Shown piece after piece: positions 1 to 59,352 of a DNA stretch of 59,352 bases. A program made the translations under genes and the position numbers. The stretch is from the sequence record PZ564402.1; one strand, written 5' to 3'. How positions within the stretch are numbered: position 1 is the stretch's first letter; each line of letters begins with the position of its first letter. The notes below the pieces were generated by a model. The model searched no databases. It saw only the letters and a program-made list of their open reading frames with translations, and was not told the DNA's origin. Origin of the DNA: a phage.

Positions 1-29
1 TAACCACTCAACCAAATAAGGGGATCACC

Positions 30-578
30 ATGAAACTGAATATCACCGCGCCGGGCCTGTTCTTTAATCGTAGCGGCGACCGCGTCACCGTGGATCAAAT
101 CGTTTTAGAAAATAGCGCCGGGGCCGTCGTGTCATTCCCGGTTAAGGGCCGGATCTGGAAAATGTACCGGGGCGCATATCGTCCGCGTGAGTTTAAGATC
201 TGGACGGCGTCGGGCAAGTTTTACGCGGGCGAACAATCCCGATCGCCGTGGGATATTGTCGGCGAAGTTGTCGCGGACGATGTGCGCCCGGTCTACTGGC
301 AAGATCTGACCGATGACCAGAAAGCGCAAGCCGCCGACAAATATCACAATGGTGAAGGCACGCCGGGCGATTATTTCACCTATACGCCGGATCAATTCAT
401 CGTGATTAATGGTGACGTGTACGATCTGGACGCCGACGCGTCAGTCTATGAGGTCGAAGGGTTAAAAGGTCATGTGCGCATACTGGAAAGCACGAAGGCG
501 GACGGGGGCGCGTTGGCGGTGCAATGCGTCGAAGGTTGGGACGTGGTAAGCGTTTACCGGGTACAGGTGACATCATGA
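30..578 (+). CDS. hypothetical early protein (182 aa)
   Basis: ORF with ATG preceded by AAGGGGA RBS; part of rightward early operon; no recognisable motif. Confidence 0.55.
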   Translation: MKLNITAPGLFFNRSGDRVTVDQIVLENSAGAVVSFPVKGRIWKMYRGAYRPREFKIWTASGKFYAGEQSRSPWDIVGEVVADDVRPVYWQDLTDDQKAQAADKYHNGEGTPGDYFTYTPDQFIVINGDVYDLDADASVYEVEGLKGHVRILESTKADGGALAVQCVEGWDVVSVYRVQVTS

Positions 579-796
579 ATAAAACCGGATTTTCGGGGAA
601 CGCCGCAAGGGCCGCTATAAAATTCACCGCGTGCGGCGCGATCGTGGCGTTTATCGGGGCCGCCGTGTTTTTTGGTGACAACGTCGGGCCGTATAAAGTG
701 TTTTTGTATACCGTCGCTGGGGGCGTATGCGTGCGCCTGATTTGGCCGACTCAGGACGAAGGCGACGCGCTTATAAAACGGGATGACGGGCCGTAA
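575..796 (+). CDS. small hydrophobic/membrane protein (73 aa; start chosen at internal ATG MNKTGF)
   Basis: ATGA overlap with upstream ORF stop; hydrophobic core AIVAFIGAAVFF. Confidence 0.4.
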   Translation: MNKTGFSGNAARAAIKFTACGAIVAFIGAAVFFGDNVGPYKVFLYTVAGGVCVRLIWPTQDEGDALIKRDDGP

Positions 797-830
797 AGGT
801 GACGCGGCCGACGATTAAAGATAAAAGTTA

Positions 831-859
831 TTGACGCACGCCGCGTATATCATTTATAT
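831..859 (+). promoter_or_regulatory. sigma70-like promoter (-35 TTGACG, 17-nt spacer, -10 TTATAT) followed by UUCG-type leader hairpin
   Basis: Near-identical 47-bp copy at 57406-57452; A/T-rich upstream tract; lies in intergenic gap before 922. Confidence 0.6.
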
Positions 860-921
860 TTAAATTCCCTTCGGGGGCCGGGGGCAATGGGGCCGACGGT
901 TATCAAAACAGGTACATTAAA

Positions 922-2076
922 ATGACTCACGATCAAATCGTTGCAATGGTTGGAAAATACAATATCAAGGCCGATCGCGCCGTGTCTTATAACTATGATG
1001 TTTACGGTTCGACGCAAGTCGAGATCCGCGAGGTTGACGGCGGGTTATTAATCTGGCGTGCGTGGTCTTATGAATCCAACTTCGAAAACGTGTTAGAAAG
1101 CGCGCTCGATCATTCCGGCACACTGAAAACCGCCGAAGAAATTGCAGAACAGGAAGCCGCCGCACGCGCTCAAAAGCTCCGCAATGATGCGATTTTCTTT
1201 GAGGTTCACGGATTCGAAGATGATTTCATTTTGAACCTGTCCGACTTTACCCGCGCTGAAATCGAAGCGGAGATCATCGCGATGAATGCAGAATTAAACG
1301 CGGCAAGCGCCGACGCCGACGCGGTTGATCACGTTTTACGCTCAACCAATCCGGCTGGGGAATACGTTTATTTAAAGCGCGGTTACTGGATGTTAGATCT
1401 TGATGACGCGGAGATCCTGAACGCGCGCCCGGATATTCACATGGTTAGTCTTTACGACACGCCGATCGAATATGTGCCGTTTGAACAGGCCCGCAAAGAT
1501 GACCCGGAAAGCGATTTCATCAAACAACTTAAAGCGGGATATGTGACCGCCCCGACCGACTACGTCGATCGCGCGTGCGCCGCCGTTGAGCGTGGAAACG
1601 TTAACGCATCGGGGATCGTGCTGCATACCTTGCGCGACAAAATCGACGGCGAACATTTCGAAATCACGACACGTATTAGCCCGGCTGAATATCAGCTTTA
1701 TCGTGTGCGCGTTGTCGTGTCCTGCTGCATTGATGGCGCGTTTCATAGCGTCATTGAACTGGATCGCGATGTGAGCACGGTTGAGCACGTCCGCGACGTG
1801 GTGCGCGTCGGCTGCATGAAACAATATATCAAGCAAGCCCGCGCGACGTATGCCGCGACCGGGGCCGCCACGCTCAACAATGACAAGACGGCGACACGTA
1901 TCAAGATTAAAACCGTTGCGGGAATGACGTTGATCGCTAAAACCGAAGATGTGATTTTTTCAGATAGCGGCCTGTTTTGCTCCGCGTGGTTAATGCGTCT
2001 TGATTTGCTGGAAAACAAGACATATGCGCAAGCCGTCATGACGTCGCAGATCAAAACAATCGAATTCATCAAATAA
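922..2076 (+). CDS. hypothetical early protein (384 aa)
   Basis: Long ORF downstream of promoter 831-859; no recognisable motif. Confidence 0.6.
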   Translation: MTHDQIVAMVGKYNIKADRAVSYNYDVYGSTQVEIREVDGGLLIWRAWSYESNFENVLESALDHSGTLKTAEEIAEQEAAARAQKLRNDAIFFEVHGFEDDFILNLSDFTRAEIEAEIIAMNAELNAASADADAVDHVLRSTNPAGEYVYLKRGYWMLDLDDAEILNARPDIHMVSLYDTPIEYVPFEQARKDDPESDFIKQLKAGYVTAPTDYVDRACAAVERGNVNASGIVLHTLRDKIDGEHFEITTRISPAEYQLYRVRVVVSCCIDGAFHSVIELDRDVSTVEHVRDVVRVGCMKQYIKQARATYAATGAATLNNDKTATRIKIKTVAGMTLIAKTEDVIFSDSGLFCSAWLMRLDLLENKTYAQAVMTSQIKTIEFIK

Positions 2077-2579: not shown

Positions 2580-2823
2580 GGCGCAACGCTTAACGGCTGC
2601 ACGTATGGCGGCGGATCGGTATGCCGGGATCGCACGGGCAAAAGGTTTTAAACGTCATGCGGATGGCGTGACTTTTATCCGGGCAGATGCGGATCTAACG
2701 TGGGATGACCGGGCGCGCGCTTTCCGTGTGACGCTGTACAAAATGGACGGGGCCGCACGTCTTGCCGTTGCCACTGTACGCGCGAATGCGATGCTTAACG
2801 TGCTGTTAAAATCGTTTATCTGA
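2572..2823 (+). CDS. hypothetical protein (start at internal ATG MDKAQRL)
   Basis: 8-nt overlap with upstream gene; last gene before terminator. Confidence 0.45.
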   Translation: MDKAQRLTAARMAADRYAGIARAKGFKRHADGVTFIRADADLTWDDRARAFRVTLYKMDGAARLAVATVRANAMLNVLLKSFI

Positions 2824-2892
2824 ATCCCGGATTTTCGGGGAACGCCGCACGATCCCTTTTAACCTGTTTTGACATATTCCCCATGTATCAAA

Positions 2893-2919
2893 GGCCGCCT
2901 ATCCGGGCGGCTTTTTTAT
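2893..2919 (+). terminator. rho-independent terminator (GCCGCC stem / GGCGGC, T6 tract)
   Basis: GC stem-loop followed by TTTTTTATT directly after last gene of rightward early operon. Confidence 0.65.
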
Positions 2920-2927
2920 TGCCTTTC

Positions 2928-3126
2928 TGATATACGCGGCGTGCGTTGCGGTGCCGTGTAGCGGGCCTATGGTGTGCCGTGTGCGATGATATACGCGGCG
3001 TGCGTATGGCGGCCCGTCCTGCTTTCTTCCTTCCTGATATACACGACGTGCATCAATGCGGCCTTATGTGTGCGCTATGCCGTATGGCGGCCCGCTATGG
3101 TGCTGCATGATATACGCGGCGTGCGT
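2928..3126. repeat. four direct repeats of 19-bp TGATATACGCGGCGTGCGT (one degenerate) with nested TATGGCGGCCCG sub-repeats
   Basis: Copies at 2928, 2987, 3035 (degenerate), 3108; noncoding; about 240 bp from candidate cos. Confidence 0.7.
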
Positions 3127-3363
3127 TGGTGTGCGGCTGTATATGGCTATCTATTCCCCTTTCTATGGTATCCCCTGCTATATGGTGTGACGGGGCGTTA
3201 TTGTATGCCCTTATTTCGACCGCTACGGGGGGCAGACGGGGCGATCGTGGTGTAAGGTATGCCTACCTATTACGATCTATCTTGCGTGGCGTGGCGGGCG
3301 GCTGAGGAAGAATTACGGTCACGATTTCAAAAAGGTACTTACCCGCCCGTCGGTCAGCCCGGG

Positions 3364-3375
3364 GGTGCGCAGAGC
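3364..3375 (+). other. candidate cohesive-end site (cos) 12-mer GGTGCGCAGAGC
   Basis: Exact match to the 12-nt 5' cohesive end I recall being reported for Salmonella phage Chi; lies in a noncoding interval beside direct repeats. Confidence 0.45.
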
Positions 3376-3605
3376 CGCTTTCTCGGAAAATGGGCCGGAT
3401 CTGCCATAGCCCCGCTTTGCGAAATCAATAACTTAGCCGAAAAATCGAATTTCTCCCGTAGGGAGGCACCGAAACAGGGTGCTGCCCGGGGTGCGGGCGG
3501 AACGGCGCTTTAGCCCCTCAACCGATTGATAGTATTACGGTTATACCCGGTGGGCTGGTGCTGACCAAGTCCACGGCAGCAGGCATCAGACACAAGATAC
3601 AACTC

Positions 3606-3868
3606 GGTTACAGGAAATTCGACTTGTAACCTATCCGTAAATCCTTAATTCTACTACCTTTTATCAACTATTAGTTACAAGTTACAAGAAATAAGGGTAA
3701 ATAGGATAAGAAATAGGGATAAAACGTTGTATATTGTAGATCACATCGTCACACATTATATGTATGTATAGGGTTAGCGGCACTTGTAACCTGTACTCAA
3801 AACATGGTCAAGGCCAGTCGTGACGCGGCTTTCAGGGGTTACAAGACGATCATGCGTTTTTGTAACCT
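3606..3868. promoter_or_regulatory. AT-rich control region with multiple GGTTACAA/TTGTAACC inverted and tandem repeats (operator-like)
   Basis: Inverted pairs 3606-3631 and 3838-3868, tandem GTTACAAGTTACAAG at 3673-3690, further copy at 3784-3791; upstream of HTH gene 3925. Confidence 0.5.
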
Positions 3869-3924
3869 CAACGGTTAACAGCACGTCGAACATACGCGAC
3901 GTGTATCAAACGGGGAAACTAAAA

Positions 3925-4251
3925 ATGGCTAGTGCAGTTGAAAAGTTAAAATGCGGAACGTCAGTGGAACGGGCGTTGAACAAAAGAGCGGCTGATAAAG
4001 TGTGCGACGGGGTTAAAAAGCGTCTCAGAAATGCAATAGTCGCGGAAATCGACGACAAGGGGTACACCAATTCCGAAGTTTGCAGCATGACTTGCGTACC
4101 AAGCAGCCGGGTAAGGGAGTTGAAGGAAAAACAAGGAGACGGATTCCAGCTAGAAACGCTTTTACGCATGGCAATTACGCTTAAATTGGACATTGAAATG
4201 GTCACATTCTGGAATCACGACGTGATCAAAGCGCGCGTAAAAATATCGTGA
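3925..4251 (+). CDS. XRE/Cro-like helix-turn-helix transcriptional regulator (109 aa)
   Basis: HTH-like segment GYTNSEVCSMTCVPSSRVRELKEKQ; GGGGAA RBS; start placed at internal ATG because upstream part of ORF overlaps operator repeats. Confidence 0.55.
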   Translation: MASAVEKLKCGTSVERALNKRAADKVCDGVKKRLRNAIVAEIDDKGYTNSEVCSMTCVPSSRVRELKEKQGDGFQLETLLRMAITLKLDIEMVTFWNHDVIKARVKIS

Positions 4252-4264
4252 TTTCTACTAAAAA

Positions 4265-45582: not shown

Positions 45583-45863
45583 ATTAAGCCTCGGTTATAT
45601 TCGTCCACGTATTTTTCATTTTCAGGAGATCGGTCTACCTGATTAATCTCGCTGAACTCGCAGGAAATAATATCCCCGCTAGGCAGGCGCACCCGCCAAA
45701 AAATATCCTCTTCACGCGGCCCGGTGCGTTCCCATTCGAGCACGGTTCCGTAGTATTTATGCCCGTTGAATCGGTCAGTGAAATGCACGGAGTCGCCTTT
45801 AATCGGCCAGCCCGGTTTTATCTTGGCACGGTATTTCCGTTTTATAGCCTCAACGTCGATCAT
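45579..45863 (-). CDS. hypothetical early protein (94 aa)
   Basis: ORF coupled to neighbours on minus strand. Confidence 0.45.
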   Translation of the reverse strand: MIDVEAIKRKYRAKIKPGWPIKGDSVHFTDRFNGHKYYGTVLEWERTGPREEDIFWRVRLPSGDIISCEFSEINQVDRSPENEKYVDEYNRGLI

Positions 45864-45938
45864 ACTTCATCATCCTCCAAGTCTTCGTCAAAAAGGTCGG
45901 ACTGGCCGCCGGAAAAGCTGACGACAAGCGGCGCTTTG

Positions 45939-48726: not shown

Positions 48727-49016
48727 GGTAAAAGTCCTTCTGGCAAATTATCTATGTGGATAACAGTCGGGGTGTAGCCTTCCTTTATGATGCGACCTAC
48801 CCATTCAAACTCCGGCGTTTTTTGCAGATAAATCACACGCTGTTCGTCGCGCAATGACAGCGGACACGGCCACTCGCCCATGTTCCCCCGTATGATGTTC
48901 GCACCATAATGCTCCGCGATTGCGATCTGCCCCTTCGGCTCAATCTCTGGCGCGCCTTCGCCATAAACGATCACGATGTCATACACGGTCATAGTCTCCA
49001 GTCTAACGGCTCCCAT
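48723..49016 (-). CDS. hypothetical early protein (97 aa)
   Basis: ORF. Confidence 0.4.
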   Translation of the reverse strand: MGAVRLETMTVYDIVIVYGEGAPEIEPKGQIAIAEHYGANIIRGNMGEWPCPLSLRDEQRVIYLQKTPEFEWVGRIIKEGYTPTVIHIDNLPEGLLP

Positions 49017-49193: not shown

Positions 49194-50168
49194 TTATTCC
49201 TTCGGTGGATTTGATTGGTGGCGATTTAGCCAGATGACAATTCCGGCAGTATAATTGATCACGCCGAGCAACTCCCTAACCCTTTGGTCATGTGTTGGCA
49301 GGTTGACACCCTCGACGACCTTTTTGCATACCTGATACACCAAGCCGAGCGGGCTATTGATCAGGTCAGAAATGGCGTTCATCGGCTGCTGGCTGAACGG
49401 CAGGTCATTCGCGTGGCGCTCGCGTCCTTTACCATACGCGGCTTGTGTCAGCGCATCATGTAGCACTTTGACTAATTCGGAATAATCGTTGCTGTCTTTG
49501 ACGTTCCGGAATTCGTACTGCCATGACCTGGCGGCCGACGGTGCAACGGCTTCCGGCGCGACGAGGGCTTCATCAAGCGGCCATCCCTGCGCGAAGGCGA
49601 ACATGATGTAATTCATCGCGTCTATGTACTGATTCTCTTCGAGACAGCGGCGGATGGCGTCGGAACATTGCTTTGGCCAGTCCGGCTGCATCCATCCCAA
49701 TTCCAGTCCCGGGTTTTTGCGCTCGAACTGAATCAGACGATCCAGCATGTATCCGAAGACCTGTTCGCAGATTTCCGCCGTGGGTTGGCTCAACGCTGGC
49801 CGCTCCAGATGGAATACCGTGACAGTCGGGTCTGTCTTGCCTTTCGGCAGTTTCAGGTATTTCTGTTCGGTATCGAGCAGCGACTGAATCAGGCCAAGAA
49901 CGTGCTCCTTCATGATCAATGGCGTGGCGTATCCGGCTTGGTCTAACCCTAACTGCGCCAGCACGGCCTTGCGGAAATCCTCGGCGTCGTACTGATCCTT
50001 GCTTTTCGGCGAGGATTGCAGGTCATTGATAATCTTCACTGCGTGGTCGCGCATATCGCCGTCGTCCTCGTAGTCAAAACTGTCCATGTTCAGCGCGTTG
50101 AGGATGGCTTCTTCAAACTTCTCGCTGCTGGTCTTTCTCAGACCGCGTTCTTTCTTCACGTCTACCAT
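49194..50168 (-). CDS. hypothetical early protein (324 aa)
   Basis: First ORF downstream of promoter 50208-50236. Confidence 0.5.
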   Translation of the reverse strand: MVDVKKERGLRKTSSEKFEEAILNALNMDSFDYEDDGDMRDHAVKIINDLQSSPKSKDQYDAEDFRKAVLAQLGLDQAGYATPLIMKEHVLGLIQSLLDTEQKYLKLPKGKTDPTVTVFHLERPALSQPTAEICEQVFGYMLDRLIQFERKNPGLELGWMQPDWPKQCSDAIRRCLEENQYIDAMNYIMFAFAQGWPLDEALVAPEAVAPSAARSWQYEFRNVKDSNDYSELVKVLHDALTQAAYGKGRERHANDLPFSQQPMNAISDLINSPLGLVYQVCKKVVEGVNLPTHDQRVRELLGVINYTAGIVIWLNRHQSNPPKE

Positions 50169-57405: not shown

Positions 57406-57434
57406 TTGACGCACGCCGCGTATATCAATTACAT
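57406..57434 (+). promoter_or_regulatory. sigma70-like promoter (-35 TTGACG, 17-nt spacer, -10 TTACAT) with UUCG leader hairpin
   Basis: 47-bp near-identical copy of promoter at 831; upstream A-tract. Confidence 0.6.
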
Positions 57435-57499
57435 TTGAATTCCCTTCGGGGGACGGGGCAAAAAGTCCCGGCGATAAACCAACTTAATGAGGTGTCACG

Positions 57500-57757
57500 A
57501 TGGAAAAGGTATATAACGCGATCAAGGGTCAAACGTTGCAACATTGGTTAACGATTGCCATCAAGCGCGACGAAAACGGCGGCGCTACGGTCGAACTACG
57601 CAGCACGATCCACGTTAACAAGGTTAGCCCGGTGTCGTTTTCATGGGGTAAGGAATATAGCGACGCGGATATTCTGAATGATGCCGATTTATTACGCGTC
57701 ATTTATCAGAAGTATGGACACGAAATTTTCACCGCTGATTTTACACGTAACATTTAA
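57500..57757 (+). CDS. hypothetical early protein (85 aa)
   Basis: First ORF after promoter 57406. Confidence 0.5.
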   Translation: MEKVYNAIKGQTLQHWLTIAIKRDENGGATVELRSTIHVNKVSPVSFSWGKEYSDADILNDADLLRVIYQKYGHEIFTADFTRNI

Positions 57758-57775: not shown

Positions 57776-58315
57776 ATGCAAACTATTAACACTAAATATC
57801 ACAACGGGAAAATCGTTGCGACTTCTTGGAATGGCTGGACGCGTTCAGAATATGACGCGGCGTTATCCAGTGAGCAAAACCACCGCGCCGCCGCTGAAAA
57901 GCTAATCATTAAACTGAATAAAGGCCGCTCGATGGAATGGGGGATCGTGAATAGTGCGCCATCCGTGCCGGGCGTGCGTGGTAAGGATAACGGCTGGACG
58001 TTTATTATTGGTTATGTGCCAGAAGTCGCGCCCGCGCATATGTCAATCACTGTTAAGTTCTGCCCGGCAACAAATAAAGGCCCGGCATACATGCGCGCTT
58101 ATTCGTGGTTAGTGCCGCGCGGGATCAAGGTTAACTATTCGCCACGCGTCGCCGACGGGTCAGATATTCAGGCAAACGCACGTTATGCGGCGGGCATCAT
58201 GTTAGACCGCATTAATGAGATATGCCGCGAAGGTGGCGATCTCTTAGGCTGGAAAATTGCGGACTACGTGCAATTGTACGACGGCGATCGCCTGTTCACT
58301 CTGAAATCTAATTAA
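57776..58315 (+). CDS. hypothetical early protein (179 aa)
   Basis: AAGGGGA RBS. Confidence 0.5.
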   Translation: MQTINTKYHNGKIVATSWNGWTRSEYDAALSSEQNHRAAAEKLIIKLNKGRSMEWGIVNSAPSVPGVRGKDNGWTFIIGYVPEVAPAHMSITVKFCPATNKGPAYMRAYSWLVPRGIKVNYSPRVADGSDIQANARYAAGIMLDRINEICREGGDLLGWKIADYVQLYDGDRLFTLKSN

Positions 58316-58329
58316 TCCGGGGGCGCGTC

Positions 58330-58530
58330 ATGTTAATGGCTATTATCTTGATCGGTTATTCAATAATTGCGGCTGTTATATATCGTGACGCGCGGGCGGT
58401 GTGGCGTCGCTGTAAGGTTGAGCGCCGTTATTCTTTCGGGCGTAAAACGTTTTATTTACGCGAGCGTAAAACAGGCCGCTTGATCGGCTGTTCAAATAAT
58501 TTTTTCACTATCCTGTTACAAGGGGCTTAA
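58330..58530 (+). CDS. small membrane protein (66 aa)
   Basis: N-terminal TMD MLMAIILIGYSIIAAVIY. Confidence 0.4.
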   Translation: MLMAIILIGYSIIAAVIYRDARAVWRRCKVERRYSFGRKTFYLRERKTGRLIGCSNNFFTILLQGA

Positions 58531-58532
58531 TC

Positions 58533-59156
58533 ATGCGTACTATTTCACTTTATACTTTTAACGAACTGTCCGACGTCGCGAAAGCAAAAGCGATCGAAAA
58601 TTACCGCCAATATAAGAGCGGCGATCAATTCGACTTTTCTGAATATAAAGAAAGCCTTCGTGAATTTTGTGATGATCTATGCGTCGAGGTGCGCGACTGG
58701 TCTTATGGTTTAGGGGGTTGCGATGTAAGCTATGAAATTAATCATAGTTCAGATGTGGAAGATTTATCCGGCGTGCGTGCGTACAAGTGGATTATTAATA
58801 ATGTTACGGCGTTTAATACGCGTCGCCGCGTTTATCGTGAATACCGTGAAGTCAATAACCACGGTTTTAAACAAAAGGCGTCCTTCGTTAAATGGGTTAG
58901 CGGGGTGTTCAACGCGTCCGACGATTGCCCGTATACAGGCGTTTGCTGTGACGAATCATTATTGAAGCCTTTCCGTGACTTCCTGAAAAAGCCAGATGAC
59001 CGCACGATCGCGGAACTGATACGCGAAGCGATAGACGGGTATTGTTCGGATATGCTCGACGAACTGGAAAGCCGCGAAAGCGACGAATATTTACGGGATG
59101 ATCTGGAAAACGGCGACACGCCTGAATTTTTTGAAAACGGCGCTATTTATAACTAA
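58533..59156 (+). CDS. hypothetical early protein (207 aa)
   Basis: ORF coupled to upstream gene. Confidence 0.5.
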   Translation: MRTISLYTFNELSDVAKAKAIENYRQYKSGDQFDFSEYKESLREFCDDLCVEVRDWSYGLGGCDVSYEINHSSDVEDLSGVRAYKWIINNVTAFNTRRRVYREYREVNNHGFKQKASFVKWVSGVFNASDDCPYTGVCCDESLLKPFRDFLKKPDDRTIAELIREAIDGYCSDMLDELESRESDEYLRDDLENGDTPEFFENGAIYN

Positions 59157-59167
59157 CCGGGGGATCT

Positions 59168-59352
59168 ATGGGTCATATGTATGGCGTTATCTTGTCAAAT
59201 GGTACGCATTGCGACACGTCAACCACGGAAAAGGGCGCGAAAAATTACGCCACGCGCCACGGTTACAAGGAAGTAAGCCGCCGCCTGAATTGCGGCTATA
59301 GCGTCGAAATCGTAGCACATCGCGCCGGGTCGAAATGGATCGCCGGGCCTGC
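59168..59352 (+). CDS. hypothetical protein, truncated by window end (would terminate at position 18 if the sequence is circular)
   Basis: ATG at 59168 with GGGGGA RBS; frame stays open to the window end and continues in frame into positions 1-18 (TAA). Confidence 0.35.
   Translation, partial: MGHMYGVILSNGTHCDTSTTEKGAKNYATRHGYKEVSRRLNCGYSVEIVAHRAGSKWIAGP

Follow-up and report, generated by a model that had tools for sequence, protein, structure and literature searches.

The phage sequence PZ564402.1 (59,352 nucleotides, analysed as a whole and called the window below) ends within a + strand reading frame, which starts with ATG at 59168 and stays open to the final base. The question raised by this locus is whether a real gene has been cut by the ends of the record, i.e. 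whether the window is an entire genome that was opened arbitrarily inside an early operon, as had been proposed in a preliminary description of this DNA. The features discussed are collected in Table 1.

Closure of the terminal reading frame

The open frame (59168-59352) is 185 nt long and contains 61 codons and two additional nucleotides; the nearest in-frame stop 5' of its ATG is found at 59150-59152, and the remaining two + strand frames near the window end are stopped at 59299 and 59313. When base 1 is placed after base 59352, codon 62 becomes complete (GC from the last bases and T from the first one), and the resulting ORF of 67 amino acids, MGHMYGVILSNGTHCDTSTTEKGAKNYATRHGYKEVSRRLNCGYSVEIVAHRAGSKWIAGPANHSTK, is terminated by TAA at 17-19. 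The preliminary description was right in stating that the frame is open to the last base and closes after the join, but the stop coordinate given there, 16-18, is off by one, since these positions read ATA. The position of the stop just 5' of the ribosome binding site of the gene beginning at 30 was also correctly recognized: GGGGA (20-24) and the ATG at 30 follow directly after the TAA.

The genome is densely coding, with a G+C content of 56%. At about 31% of the + strand positions of this genome 61 open codons lie ahead, and at about 17% of them a stop follows within 7 codons; taken alone, the open frame and its closure are not beyond chance and constitute weak evidence. The junction gene is regarded as real because of its homology to relatives, not because of frame statistics.

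The continuity across the join was analysed in related phages with a 3-kb query, consisting of the last 1,500 and the first 1,500 bases of the window. At least 16 records, SPN19, STP-2, PMBT21, iEPS5, TS13, Utah and BP12C among them, contain this query as a single piece, 100% covered and with identities of 93-96%. The bases on the two sides of the join, GGGCCTGC followed by TAACCACTC, are the same in STP-2 and in Chi, with no gap, and in both phages an intact small CDS is annotated across this position (WOZ15174.1 and gp68, AIU37997.1, respectively). In the rotated window one HSP with 96.8% identity to Chi passes through the junction. Furthermore, Chivirus records (Chi and its relatives, Casjensviridae) are matched at about 93-96% identity by the final 2 kb of the window and by its first 25 kb. 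The phage collection yielded no record identical to the window, its best whole-region matches being about 95-96% identical. A direct repeat of 5-599 bases shared by the two window ends, either as a k-mer overlap of the assembler or as a DTR, was searched for and none was detected. As judged from these alignments, the window ends are adjacent in the relatives and not a base is missing or added at the join.

Chivirus sequence was also observed, with 92-95% protein identity, in several records whose names point to Listeria, Staphylococcus or Enterococcus phages (e.g. GU169904.1, Staphylococcus phage SA1, and OR848842.1, Listeria phage LM 4-14-1); these entries are most likely explained by contamination or mixing in the assemblies and not by host range.

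Table 1. Features at the junction, in the surrounding gene run and at the cohesive end (window coordinates)
Feature	Position	Strand	Remarks
5' part of Chi gp68 homologue	59168..59352	+	codons 1-61 and first two nt of codon 62; conserved core (residues 5-57) complete
3' part of Chi gp68 homologue	1..19	+	third base of codon 62 and codons 63-67 (variable C-terminal tail), TAA 17-19
Shine-Dalgarno-like GGGGGA	59159..59164	+	3 nt 5' of ATG 59168
Chi gp69 homologue	30..578	+	182 aa, phrog_9514; RBS GGGGA 20-24 directly after junction-gene stop
Upstream gene	58533..59156	+	207 aa, phrog_10310; mosaic replacement relative to Chi gp67
Sigma-70-like promoter candidate TTGACG-18-TACATT	57406..57435	+	5' of the gene run with the junction gene
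Second, near-identical promoter candidate TTGACG-18-TATATT	831..860	+	after run end 796, before next run start 922
cos, 12-base cohesive end GGTGCGCAGAGC	3364..3375	+	single exact copy in window

The gp68 homologue and its gene neighbourhood

The joined 67-aa protein shows 100% identity to gp68 of Salmonella phage Chi (KM458633 55789..55992) and to its STP-2 counterpart, and it matches phrog_7744 with E = 8e-26 (positions 1-62 of the 63 in the profile), as expected for a full-length member of this family. By tblastn it was detected in 76 phage records, in 75 of which at least 80% of the protein was covered, and at least 99% identity was seen in 34. Copies with 46-61% identity are carried by Pectobacterium, Hafnia and Providencia phages and by Salmonella phage SAP012, which represent other genera of the Casjensviridae. 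In the codon comparison with these other genera pS was 0.66-0.74 (saturated), pN 0.36-0.42 and omega 0.19-0.37; the very close relatives have just 0-5 substitutions in the gp68 homologue, too few to show selection. These comparisons identify the gp68 homologue as a genuine coding gene on which purifying selection acts; it is an ordinary, already catalogued small gene of a Chi-like Salmonella phage.

The conserved core of the protein extends over residues 5-57 (YGV..S.G.H.D.S...GAK.YAT..GY..V..R.N.GY...A...G.W), and the ten C-terminal residues are variable or absent in other homologues; it is this tail alone which is encoded at window positions 1-16. In STP-2 the annotation starts at an alternative ATG in the same frame, which corresponds to 59177. 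We favoured 59168 because the diverged homologues keep 3-4 residues ahead of the YGV.

Phrog_7744 is a family of unknown function, and the searches with the junction protein gave no match in Pfam and nothing below E = 1.6 among PDB sequences. In a search of 5.8 billion proteins two clusters only were obtained, both without name or domain. The AlphaFold2 model, built from an alignment of 3 sequences, was mediocre (pLDDT 66.8, beta-alpha-beta-beta), and Foldseek found no match to this model in the PDB below E = 2; a likeness to the T4 MotA C-terminal domain (TM 0.5) was not significant and was not used.

The gene lies in the rightmost block of small + strand genes, in a tightly packed run (57500-57757, 57776-58315, 58330-58530, 58533-59156, 59168 through the junction to 19, 30-578 and 575-796), which corresponds to Chi gp64-gp70, and the slot of the gp68 homologue between the gene in the gp67 position and gp69 is conserved in the annotated regions of STP-2, Chi, SEP13, BPS2 and Enc34. 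The suggestion that the opening point falls inside an operon agrees reasonably with this run, which lies 3' of a sigma-70-like site. The gene run with the gp68 homologue would probably be transcribed from this promoter-like site; the site is consensus-like, and the promoter scan stood at the level expected from shuffles. It is plausible that the operon is an early one, considering the consensus-type promoters and its place among small genes without known function. The literature yielded no data on the timing of transcription in Chi-like phages.

In the slot directly upstream Chi has a 161-aa gp67 and no counterpart of the phrog_10310 gene, and the 207-aa gene of the window is present in STP-2, SPN19 and iEPS5. 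The boundaries of the block 58536-59149 coincide with the flanking gene ends, and in the alignments it is evidently a clean mosaic module swap. Beyond the run, the 384-aa Chi gp71 homologue (922-2076, phrog_10087) also matches phrog_18953, labelled as 'tail protein', with E = 4e-97 over residues 156-384, yet its gene sits a long way from the tail genes, among the small non-structural genes of the right-arm block; the label of this PHROG may be wrong, or the placement of the gp71 homologue may be unusual.

A possible link between gp68 and gp69 was noticed in SAP012 (NC_053008.1), where ORF07 (240 aa, 250-972, minus strand) contains a gp68-like domain fused to gp69-type domains: the gp68-like part shows 46% identity over residues 1-63, and it is followed by the N-terminal domain of the gp69 homologue, present twice in tandem with 41% and 31% identity. 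This fusion, putative in view of a possible sequencing frameshift, suggests that the two adjacent genes may work together. That the gp68 and gp69 homologues might form one functional unit, perhaps a complex and a small module by which Chi-like phages bind nucleic acid or take over the host, is speculative and rather improbable.

Genome layout and the cohesive end

The termini of Chi DNA are 12-base single-stranded 5' extensions, 5'-GGTGCGCAGAGC, which were mapped by primer extension, and the numbering of KM458633 begins at this cohesive-end sequence (Hendrix et al. 2015, PMC4342425); a second paper reports the 12-mer as a conserved feature of Chi-like phages (PMC8273493). When KM458633 is aligned to the window, its last 600 bases fall on positions 2767-3363 (94%) and its first 324 bases on 3364-3687 (82%), so the conserved 12-base sequence stands in its conserved flanking context, as a sequence motif which predicts the virion end. 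When the window was rotated to 3364 it became colinear with KM458633 from base 1 to 59578, and 57,200 of the 59,352 bases could be aligned with 82-97% identity. Five short mosaic blocks lack a Chi alignment (3688-4260, 45584-45899, 48737-48983, 49758-50159 and 58536-59149), none of which touches the junction. The genome similarity and the gene order are those of a Chivirus, and the top database matches all belong to this genus.

From this motif and its flanks 3364-3375 is predicted, with confidence, to be the true end of the virion DNA. Taking together the colinearity after rotation, the adjacency of the ends in relatives and the location of cos, the proposal of a whole genome with an arbitrary opening point was borne out: the window almost certainly represents, as far as its sequence can tell, one complete unit-length Chivirus genome, closed across cos and opened in codon 62 of the gp68 homologue. 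The gene looks 3'-truncated and leaves a 19-base remnant at 1-19 because the record was opened inside this codon. We infer that annealing or ligation of the cos ends, or replicative concatemers, would have given reads with which the assembler circularised the contig, which is the usual outcome, and the sequence closed across the cohesive ends would then have been written from an arbitrary base 3,363 bp left of cos. The gp68 homologue would accordingly be uninterrupted in the phage itself.

Three other explanations of the open frame were considered. The closure might be coincidental and 59168-59352 no part of a real gene, a view to which the frequency of long open tails and of early stops in this genome lends some weight; it is refuted by the identity of the protein with an annotated Chi gene, by its full-length presence in 75 records, four other genera included, and by omega values well below one at saturated synonymous sites, with the PHROG profile match pointing in the same direction, and we consider the chance of such a coincidence negligible. 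Equally negligible is the chance that the window boundary is a true physical virion end, where the ORF would be truly truncated or the gene restored only on circularisation. Nothing further than the running of the ORF off the window end speaks for such a boundary, and against it the cos 12-mer and both end-flanks of Chi are situated at 3364, away from the boundary, the window ends are without overlap or repeat, and every cos-anchored relative has an undivided gp68, at a distance of about 3.4-3.8 kb from one of its ends.

Headful phages, too, give assemblies that look circular and start at an arbitrary position, and with headful packaging the DNA would be circularly permuted and terminally redundant, without any fixed end, so that any opening point would be arbitrary. 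However, the block in which the terminase genes lie is 94.7% identical at the DNA level to Chi, a phage with defined ends in the form of 12-base 5' extensions, and the exact cos sequence has been kept in a conserved context, which makes headful packaging highly improbable, if slightly less so than the two preceding alternatives.

Additional repeats were observed close to cos. Four direct copies of a 27-nt unit with the core TGATATACGCGGCGTGCGT start at 2928, 2987, 3035 and 3108 (window 2928-3134), with a spacing of 48-73 bp. They occupy non-coding DNA that separates the last gene (ending at 2823) from cos (3364), at a distance of 230-436 bp on the left side of the cohesive end. From their position they are candidates for cosB-like sites bound by the terminase, or for iterons. 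Read in reverse complement, the repeat core makes up the -35 and spacer portion of two nearly identical promoter-like elements of about 60 nt (TTGACGCACGCCGCGTATATCA...AATTCCCTTCGGGGG), located on the + strand at 831-890 and 57406-57465, ahead of + strand gene runs; related sites on the - strand are found at 3894, 47750, 53483 and 56795. Altogether 11 occurrences of the 16-mer were counted at up to 3 mismatches (≤3), compared with 1.7 expected. A putative common regulator-binding site, used at promoters and beside cos, is possible.

Comparison with known Chi records

For the deposited sequence the consequences are practical. In a linear record of this kind an annotation pipeline would miss or truncate one gene, and the record should be re-opened at window base 3364, matching the reference Chi genome. 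The split ORF is an artefact of record layout, a matter of bookkeeping with no new biology.

Such a layout has been met before. As seen from the coordinates of gp68, permuted depositions include ER3, SeZq-1, ECO103 4-12-1, BPS2 and SEP13 among others, and JX094499, a record of Chi itself, is likewise circularly permuted with an arbitrary start according to Hendrix et al. (PMC4342425). JX094499 was reported to be without 171 bp at the sequence ends, whereas in the window the junction is base-perfect relative to the relatives, the cos region is aligned and the 12-mer is kept.

Compared with the reference Chi genome, the junction gene shares with gp68 the same 67 residues, the same neighbours (the gp69 homologue downstream and the gp64-66 homologues upstream) and the same distance of about 3.4-3.6 kb from the right cos end. 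The differences are confined to the layout of the record, where the gene straddles the end and the start of the sequence, and to the upstream gene, which is a mosaic module other than gp67.
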